Shown here one piece after another: positions 937-1,897 of a stretch of DNA of 5,117 bases (position 1 is the stretch's first letter; each line of letters begins with the position of its first letter). The DNA lies in the IMG/VR virus record IMGVR_UViG_2684622618_000022; one strand, written 5' to 3'. The stretch comes from a virus. Lineage: Duplodnaviria; Heunggongvirae; Uroviricota; Caudoviricetes. The translations under genes were made by a program, and so were the position numbers. The notes under the pieces were generated by a model that had not been told where the DNA came from, did no database searches, and saw only the letters and a program-made list of their open reading frames with translations.

Positions 937-1215
937 TTAGGGAAACTGGCGTCTTGCGTGGATCACGTTTACTACTTCAACGCTTGATGTTGTTACGCGG
1001 TATAGAATTATATAGTTAGGGTGGGCTACAATCTCACGCAAGCCAGGTACTCTGTCGCTTGGTGGGTATAAATACGGATGTTCGGATAACGGCAGCACAC
1101 AACCCCTTAATCGCTGCCATAAGCGTTCAGCCGCATCTATGTCGAAACGAGCAATATAACTAGTTATATCATCTAGGTCGGTATCTGCGCTTTCAAGCCA
1201 TAACACGGGTAACAT
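937..1215 (-). CDS. parE2: ParE/RelE-family type II toxin (ParE2-like), 92 aa
   Basis: Inner start of track ORF 937..1311 at MLPVLWLESADTDLDDITSYIARFDIDAAERLWQRLR... The ATG (complement of 1213-1215) lies 1 nt after the upstream antitoxin stop (1217-1219), with a GGAG inside the antitoxin 3' end. Size, position after a small antitoxin and sequence character fit ParE. The paralogue number (2 versus 1) is from memory and unverified. Confidence 0.8.
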   Translation of the reverse strand: MLPVLWLESADTDLDDITSYIARFDIDAAERLWQRLRGCVLPLSEHPYLYPPSDRVPGLREIVAHPNYIILYRVTTSSVEVVNVIHARRQFP

Positions 1216-1216
1216 T

Positions 1217-1408
1217 TTACTGCTTGCTCCGTTCCTTGCGCATCTTAGCAAAGCGTTCTGCCATTCTGCGCTCAACTTCGTCATGGGGAATTGCTGGGCG
1301 CGGATCTGCAAGGCTCGTTGCTACTTTCGCACGCAGCCATTCGTTGTAACTGTTTTCTTGTTCAATGGTTTCAAATTCAGAAACCATTGGTGAAAGGGCT
1401 CTATTCAT
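1217..1408 (-). CDS. paaA2: Small antitoxin (PaaA2-like, ParE-associated), 63 aa
   Basis: Inner start of track ORF 1217..1462 at MNRALSPMVSEFETIEQENSYNEWLRAKVATSLADPRPAIPHDEVERRMAERFAKMRKERSKQ. The ATG (complement of 1406-1408) has a strong GGAGGA about 6 nt upstream on the minus strand. The 63-aa length and sequence match my recollection of PaaA2 from E. coli O157:H7; this needs an alignment to confirm. Confidence 0.75.
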   Translation of the reverse strand: MNRALSPMVSEFETIEQENSYNEWLRAKVATSLADPRPAIPHDEVERRMAERFAKMRKERSKQ

Positions 1409-1428
1409 GTTTCCTCCGGTTTTATAAC

Positions 1429-1800
1429 TCAGGCGCGGCGGCATTTTTGCGCCGCAATCCATCTCGCTATGAGATCTTCCATTGATTCTTTTTTCTGCTT
1501 TAACTCGCTGATTATCTGGCGTTGCTCATCCTCAGGGAAGGCTGAAAAAATCTGCAATAATTCCAGTTGATTAGACGTTAACCCTGCATGTGGTGGAGAA
1601 CCCCCCGGTTGTTCTGCGTATTCCGCATCCAGATACCCTTCCGGCATCCCGTATGTTTGCTCTATTCTTCTGGCAGCCTTTTCTCCAAACGAGGCTCTCC
1701 CACTCATTAGTTGAGATAGGTAGCTCTTCTCTTTGGGTGGCAGAGTTTTATCTTTAAACCACTCCTTGAGACGTAAACGGCGAATTTCTTTTTTTTGCAT
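1429..1800 (-). CDS. paaR2: XRE-family HTH repressor (PaaR2-like, DicA/RacR-like; cI analogue), 123 aa
   Basis: Track ORF 1429..1863 trimmed to the ATG at 1798-1800 (MQKKEIRRLRLKEW...). HTH segment KEKSYLSQLMSGRASFGEKAARRIEQTYGMPEGYL; C-terminal part (LTSNQLELLQIFSAFPEDEQ) resembles DicA. No S24 peptidase domain. The ATG sits 6 nt downstream of a candidate -10, so the mRNA may be leaderless. Confidence 0.8.
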   Translation of the reverse strand: MQKKEIRRLRLKEWFKDKTLPPKEKSYLSQLMSGRASFGEKAARRIEQTYGMPEGYLDAEYAEQPGGSPPHAGLTSNQLELLQIFSAFPEDEQRQIISELKQKKESMEDLIARWIAAQKCRRA

Positions 1801-1897
1801 GTGGTAATTATCTTTAGTAATCACTAAACAAGCAAATACTTGACTTAATGGTTTATTAAACACTAAACTCGCAAAAAAACACTAAACCGAGGAAGGT
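1801..1897. promoter_or_regulatory. Divergent promoter/operator region (OR analogue): leftward promoter for the repressor operon, rightward promoter for the cro-like operon, repeated operator-like motifs
   Basis: Minus strand: -35 TTGCTT (complement of 1830-1835), 17-bp spacer, -10 GATAAT (complement of 1807-1812), then 6 nt to the ATG. Plus strand: -35 TTGACT (1840-1845), 18-bp spacer, -10 TAAACT (1864-1869), SD GAGGAAGG (1889-1896). CACTAAAC occurs at 1822-1829, 1861-1868 and 1880-1887; palindrome TTTAGTaatcACTAAA at 1813-1828 and a near-copy TTTATTaaacACTAAA at 1852-1867. Confidence 0.5.

Follow-up and report, generated by a model that had tools for sequence, protein, structure and literature searches.

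The window, by which we mean the whole 5,117-nucleotide stretch of viral DNA analysed here (IMG/VR record IMGVR_UViG_2684622618_000022), contains three co-directional genes on the minus strand in the order paaR2, paaA2 and parE2, that is, a regulator followed by an antitoxin and then a toxin (Table 1). The genes are separated by gaps of 20 nt and 1 nt. The 20 nt between the paaR2 stop codon (1429-1431) and the paaA2 ATG contain the sequence GGAGG. The paaA2 stop codon lies at 1219-1217 and the parE2 ATG at 1215-1213, which leaves a single base (1216) between the two genes. The first-pass annotation had described three tightly packed, co-directional genes with a 1-nt gap, reading leftward from a divergent region, and this agrees with both the open reading frame list and direct translation. 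A consensus scan across 700-2300 found no terminator-like sites between the three genes, and the sole promoter-like match inside the operon, at 1196 to 1168 on the minus strand, falls within parE2. Previous work reported that the three genes form one operon that is down-regulated by PaaR2 (Hallez et al. 2010, as cited in PMC8630535).

Table 1 Features of the window, together with the parE2 reading frame of phage Evi. Positions are those of the window, except in the last line, where they are those of LR597642.1. A dot marks features without a strand.
Feature	Position	Strand	Basis
PL933P, directed leftward and away from the operon, with OL operator copies	822-867	-	hexamers, repeats
Long hairpin between the parE2 stop and PL933P	872-918	-	repeat search, RNA fold
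parE2, ParE-family toxin, 92 aa	937-1215	-	ORF list, direct translation, PDB, Pfam
paaA2, antitoxin, 63 aa	1217-1408	-	ORF list, translation, PDB, Pfam
paaR2, HTH regulator and CI analogue, 123 aa, leaderless mRNA	1429-1800	-	PDB, Sakai identity, PMC8630535
Divergent control region, 97 bp: PRM933P (leftward), PR933P (rightward), PaaR2/YdaS operators common to both	1801-1897	.	repeats, hexamers, PMC8630535
ydaS, Cro analogue	1898-2200	+	PDB 8c7k_A, Pfam YdaS_toxin and HTH_3
YdaT high-affinity operator OM, ydaS/ydaT junction, beside PRE933P	2190-2207	.	TTGATTCATGAAAATCAA, exact match to TTGATTN6AATCAA
ydaT, CII analogue	2197-2589	+	Sakai copy vs PDB 8bt1_A YdaT, E = 7e-93
O-like HTH_36 replication gene	2597-3574	+	Pfam
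IstB/DnaC-like (P-like) ATPase gene	3581-4321	+	Pfam
parE2 ORF of phage Evi (LR597642.1)	4118-4396	-	intact, protein identical, unannotated in record

The paaR2 open frame can be read from more than one start codon. Its maximal form, from the furthest upstream GTG at 1863, is 144 aa long, and an internal ATG at 1800 gives 123 aa. The start was determined in PMC8630535 by 5' RACE, N-terminal sequencing and intact mass measurement by mass spectrometry; the protein begins with MQKKE, and the mRNA is leaderless, its 5' end being the A of the ATG. The MQKKE N-terminus and the transcript beginning at the ATG rule out the 144-aa protein, which is also opposed by the operator repeats and the PR -35 hexamer that lie within 1801-1863. 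The operon had initially been assigned the span 937-1863; its left edge and gene content are correct, and the right edge has to be moved from 1863 to the true paaR2 start at 1800. Reading the sequence by eye, we also see the -10-like hexamer GATAAT at 1812-1807 (minus strand), ahead of the leaderless paaR2 ATG.

The toxin and antitoxin assignments follow from matches to known structures and families. All 92 residues of ParE2 are identical to PDB 5cw7_B, 'Plasmid stabilization protein ParE' (E = 7e-60), and the protein scores 60.9 bits against Pfam PF05016, ParE_toxin (cut-off 23), with residues 4-91 covering positions 1-89 of the 89 in the profile. Further ParE structures are also matched (3kxe, 6x0a and 5ceg). 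PaaA2 is 100% identical over residues 2-63 to PDB 3zbe_A/5cw7 and scores 70.7 bits against Pfam PF21217 (cut-off 27), the only Pfam domain found in this protein. On these similarities ParE2 belongs to the ParE family and PaaA2 to the PaaA2 family, in keeping with the 92-aa ParE-family toxin and 63-aa PaaA-type antitoxin of the first-pass annotation. The ParE2-PaaA2 complex is known for the identical protein (PDB 5cw7). In E. coli genomes that carry the segment, automated PGAP/RefSeq annotation names the three genes 'RelE/ParE family toxin', 'RelB family antitoxin' (for PaaA2) and 'transcriptional regulator'.

The regulator is identical over residues 1-66 to the PaaR2 chain of PDB 7nkv_A/8c3k, the crystallised N-terminal domain of a 'Phage repressor protein CI', which identifies it as a PaaR-type protein. 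At the DNA level, paaR2 is identical over the full gene to Sakai ECs_2279, and its protein belongs to phrog_5736, a family of transcriptional regulators. PaaR2 gave no Pfam match at E ≤ 0.01, including to Peptidase_S24, and so does not group with the CI/LexA family. Previous work also found that PaaR2 lacks a peptidase motif and does not react to mitomycin C (PMC8630535). Because it has neither an S24 peptidase domain nor a mitomycin C response, we consider PaaR2 to be analogous to CI in function but not homologous to the full-length CI protein. The same study describes PaaR2, YdaS and YdaT as the analogues of CI, Cro and CII, respectively.

It had been proposed from the sequence that this is a recognised PaaR-PaaA-ParE system from O157:H7 prophages, and that the proteins should be compared with PaaR2, PaaA2 and ParE2 and with ParE profiles. 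The comparison bears this out: all three are 100% identical to PDB chains (in the case of PaaR2, over the N-terminal domain), and Pfam ParE_toxin and PaaA2 are matched above their cut-offs. These scores and identities also mean that the trio is not a chance arrangement. Among three-component PaaR-PaaA-ParE systems, this locus is the type example.

The window aligns with many E. coli O157:H7 chromosomes at 99.9% identity, and at least 80% of it is covered in 457 genomes. Positions 346-5117 correspond to Sakai prophage Sp12 and are identical to it outside a masked run of 50 N (2300-2349). Sakai annotates the matched region as 'prophage Sp12, lambda-like phage', with the trio as ECs_2281, ECs_2280 and ECs_2279 (the last, paaR2, as 'phage repressor protein CI'), adjoined by ECs_2278, 'phage antirepressor protein Cro'. 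In a gapped alignment, which accommodates a 1-nt indel at 242, the window differs from Sakai Sp12 at three positions only, 198, 242 and 345, all of them to the left of the operon. At 198 the window has G where Sakai has T, so that the ECs_2283 homologue carries D in place of E; at 242 there is one extra T relative to Sakai within an intergenic T-run. The same locus was studied by Jurenas et al. 2021 (PMC8630535) in CP-933P of EDL933, which they state to be identical to Sp12. Almost certainly, then, the segment is the paaR2-paaA2-parE2 operon of CP-933P/Sp12, a lambdoid cryptic prophage of E. coli O157:H7, and lies in its immunity region. This locus, including the replacement of rexAB, has already been published (PMC8630535, PMC9986795), and there is nothing new in it here. 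Gene identities, layout, and operator and promoter sequences are established directly in the window; the regulation, operon structure, bistability and post-segregational killing were established in the literature. The value of the locus is that of a positive control, in which a three-component toxin-antitoxin system inside a prophage immunity switch was recognised from raw sequence.

Sp12 is a cryptic prophage, and in Sakai its integrase carries a pseudogene annotation. This could suggest that the three genes are likewise decayed, or are chance open frames in a dead prophage. Against this, 633 of 5426 complete E. coli genomes carry the segment 820-1900, 573 of them with at least 99% identity, and nearly always as one chromosomal copy per genome. 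The frames are intact and encode proteins identical to those that have been expressed, crystallised and shown to be active, and we therefore exclude decay or chance as an explanation.

The control elements of an immunity region flank the operon on both sides. The published operator half-site GTTTAGTAA occurs seven times in the window with at most one mismatch, where 0.6 copies are expected by chance and none of 200 shuffled sequences reaches seven. Four copies lie in 1812-1861 and two at 826-836, near PL; the seventh falls within ydaS, at 1912-1920. A repeat search returned the motif ..A(A/C)ACTAAAC three times in the 97-bp region (1816-1829, 1855-1868 and 1874-1887) as part of a five-copy ..ACTAAAC family whose remaining members are on the PL side, at 830-843 and 852-865. 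A 24-nt inverted match links 826-849 to 1838-1861 and corresponds to the relationship between OL and OR. A promoter scan places the PR hexamers, TTGACT-18-TAAACT, at 1840-1869 on the plus strand, and the same hexamers recur at PL as TTGACT-16-TAAACT on the minus strand, from 852 to 825. Together with analogues of cro, cII, O and P in that order, the operator repeats at 1812-1887 and 822-867 and the hexamers common to PR and PL give the region the organisation of a lambdoid immunity region. Jurenas et al. mapped PaaR2 and YdaS on the 97-bp intergenic region by footprinting and EMSA, and reported that OR carries four evenly spaced 18-bp palindromes; they also placed PL933P beyond parE2, with the hexamers of PR and three operator copies, and measured ~100-fold repression by PaaR2 and by YdaS (PMC8630535).

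The same study showed that PaaR2 represses PR933P and PL933P and also regulates its own promoter, PRM933P. PaaR2 and YdaS each repress both PRM933P and PR933P; at low levels PaaR2 stimulates PRM and already represses PR, and the locus is bistable. Since PaaR2 controls PR933P, PL933P and PRM933P, transcription of the toxin-antitoxin pair is tied to the immunity switch. The first-pass annotation had suggested that the regulator of the toxin-antitoxin pair would also be the prophage repressor, and PMC8630535 supports this by demonstrating that PaaR2 acts as the CI-like repressor in the immunity region of CP-933P.

A different view of PaaR2 is that it is no more than the DNA-binding part of a ParD-like antitoxin that has become split into two proteins, in which case the three genes would form a self-contained toxin-antitoxin module unrelated to immunity. 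This idea was raised by the authors of PMC8630535 in their discussion, and it would fit with the lack of a DNA-binding domain in PaaA2, which has only the short PaaA2 Pfam domain, and with the existence of a paralogous three-gene system in CP-933M. A module of this kind, however, does not account for ~100-fold repression of PR933P and the distant PL933P, nor for the competition with the Cro-like YdaS that leads to bistability (PMC8630535). Furthermore, operator copies are found on either side of the operon, at OR (1812-1887) and at OL (822-867), and paaR2 sits in the cI slot, between PL and the cro/cII/O/P analogues. We consider the split-antitoxin explanation very improbable, and favour PaaR2 as the repressor of the prophage immunity region.

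The rightward arm begins with ydaS and ydaT. Residues 1-100 of YdaS match PDB 8c7k_A, 'Phage antirepressor protein Cro' (E = 1.5e-63). In ydaT, the 50 N at 2300-2349 stand for 83 nt, corresponding to about residues 35-62 of YdaT, and we recovered this stretch from Sakai. As the mask does not preserve length, the 130-aa 'YdaT' frame of the window is an artefact. The structure of YdaT has been solved and its operator mapped by footprinting (Prolic-Kalinsek et al. 2023, PMC9986795). The sequence TTGATTN6AATCAA has one exact occurrence, at 2190-2207, which is where PMC9986795 places OM. YdaT activates a cryptic promoter, PRE933P, between ydaS and ydaT (PMC8630535), and PRE933P is an alternative promoter for the paaR2 operon. 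PGAP names ydaT a 'toxin YdaT family protein' and Pfam assigns YdaS to 'YdaS_toxin'. These names are misleading because the literature describes the two proteins as Cro- and CII-like regulators and not as a toxin-antitoxin pair.

Downstream of ydaT, the O-like gene contains iteron-like repeats at 2968-3034 and 3071-3104. Here a 33-nt inverted repeat includes two copies of TTGACCCGTCAAAT, and two copies of CCyGATCCGTCAG are spaced 21 nt apart. These repeats are a candidate for a replication origin located within the gene itself, as in lambda O.

Between the parE2 stop and PL933P lies a long inverted repeat with 22-nt arms that are 82% complementary and a 3-nt loop. RNA folding of the minus strand of 855-940 gave -24 kcal/mol (z = -4.67), and none of 200 shuffled sequences folded as well. 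The consensus scan across 700-2300 returned no canonical intrinsic terminator after parE2, and it missed this hairpin because the hairpin has no tight T-run. The hairpin may be a terminator or insulator of the operon, analogous to lambda timm. Further to the left, downstream of PL933P, two overlapping antisense ORFs occupy 285-641. A minus-strand ORF of 99 aa (584-285), in the same orientation as PL, matches phrog_21318 with 222 bits, and a plus-strand ORF of 66 aa with a CxxC...CxxC pattern corresponds to Sakai ECs_2282 and matches phrog_4852 with 39 bits. The coding strand is disputed between annotations, with the minus strand annotated in phage Evi and the plus strand in Sakai. Owing to the G-to-T change at 345, codon 14 of the plus-strand ORF is a TAA stop in the window, and the minus-strand ORF has L in place of F.

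Together with the published work, these elements show how the locus operates. PaaR2 binds the repeated operators in the 97-bp paaR2-ydaS region and those of OL/PL to the left of parE2. It represses PR (ydaS-ydaT) and PL, with its own leaderless PRM stimulated at a low level of PaaR2 and repressed at a high one. YdaS competes for the operators of PaaR2, which makes the switch bistable. PaaA2 and ParE2 are carried on the same leftward transcript, in the position of rexA and rexB, and activation of PRE by YdaT allows the operon to be driven from a second promoter. PaaA2 is without a DNA-binding domain and is broken down by ClpAP and ClpXP, according to Hallez et al. 2010 as cited in the introduction of PMC8630535; it neutralises ParE2 by direct binding. 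The same introduction, again citing Hallez et al. 2010, describes ParE2 as co-localised with the nucleoid and as an inducer of the SOS response, in the account given here when it is free of PaaA2. Activation of ParE2 was undetected in either transcriptional state of the switch (PMC8630535). The pair behaves as an addiction module: cells that lose the region are killed, and this would stabilise the prophage immunity region. In line with this, an unstable mini-F plasmid was stabilised by the ydaST-RAE2 region to the same degree as by ccdAB (PMC8630535), and prophage stabilisation is the role that the authors of that study proposed for the toxin-antitoxin pair.

Besides or instead of addiction, paaA2-parE2 might serve as a lysogen-expressed abortive-infection or superinfection-exclusion module like RexAB; an invading phage might trigger it by shutting down transcription in the host or by depleting labile PaaA2. 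The position and transcript context are the same as those of rexA-rexB, and an antitoxin made unstable by ClpAP/ClpXP fits the usual trigger logic of toxin-antitoxin-based defence. The distribution of the segment is also relevant here, since one phage outside the cryptic prophages carries it. In the phage collection searched, the sole record with the 820-1900 segment is Escherichia phage Evi (LR597642.1, 40 kb), at 98.4% DNA identity, which a later paper describes as a coliphage isolated from infant faecal samples. Its parE2 is intact, its PaaA2 differs from that of the window by one residue and its PaaR2 by two. Because an isolated coliphage carries the same module, paaR2-paaA2-parE2 is not confined to cryptic prophages. 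However, none of the three proteins matched a PADLOC defence model, and the published phenotype is plasmid stabilisation (PMC8630535). Papers that mention PaaA2 together with abortive infection are reviews and structural studies of ParDE; judged by titles and abstracts, none names PaaA2 in its title and a single one has either term in its abstract, and we found no phage-defence test of paaA2-parE2. We regard an exclusion role as unlikely. It can be extended to a form that we hold to be just as doubtful, in which the PaaR2/YdaS switch would set the dose of the toxin-antitoxin pair and only the PaaR2-on ('lysogenic') subpopulation would be strongly protected. If an exclusion role were true, the intact copy in Evi would be consistent with a benefit for live temperate phages, and not just for decaying prophages. 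Prophage stabilisation through addiction is the role that we prefer for the pair.

The comparison with lambda clarifies which aspects of the locus are shared with a classical immunity region. The first-pass annotation had likened the layout to cI-rexA-rexB of lambda. With respect to position this is correct, as paaA2-parE2 replace rexA and rexB, and PaaR2 replaces CI (PMC9986795); the likeness to rexAB is purely positional, however, and does not extend to homology. As in lambda, a leftward operon starts from PRM, with a leaderless repressor gene first and two accessory genes next. Similarly, OR is common to a divergent cro-cII-O-P arm, a second operator and promoter, PL, lie beyond the operon, and PRE, activated by CII in lambda and by YdaT in CP-933P (PRE933P), gives an alternative transcript. 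In contrast, the CP-933P trio has no sequence homology to CI, RexA or RexB, and PaaR2 is without the S24 autopeptidase domain. The four evenly spaced 18-bp palindromes of CP-933P stand against three OR sites in lambda. The accessory genes also differ in kind, being a type II toxin-antitoxin pair in CP-933P and an abortive-infection pair in lambda. Pfam assigns the pair to ParE and PaaA2, and this places it outside RexAB, with a resemblance in position only.

Two-gene parDE systems, such as RK2 ParDE, Caulobacter ParDE1 (3kxe) and Vibrio ParDE2, share with the locus the ParE fold, an antitoxin gene immediately upstream of the toxin, and nearly overlapping genes. Indeed, the PDB matches nearest to ParE2, other than itself, are 3kxe_A (E = 3.6e-5) and 6x0a_A. 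Unlike ParD, PaaA2 has no DNA-binding domain, and transcription in CP-933P is under a third protein and the prophage regulators instead of conditional cooperativity of the toxin-antitoxin complex. The paaR1-paaA1-parE1 system of prophage CP-933M is a paralogous three-component system of the same strain (PMC8630535, introduction), although it resides in another prophage and its sequence has diverged. Finally, paaR2-paaA2-parE2 of CP-933P is the same locus as that of the window; the operon shows no difference, and the operators, promoters, ydaS and ydaT are the same.
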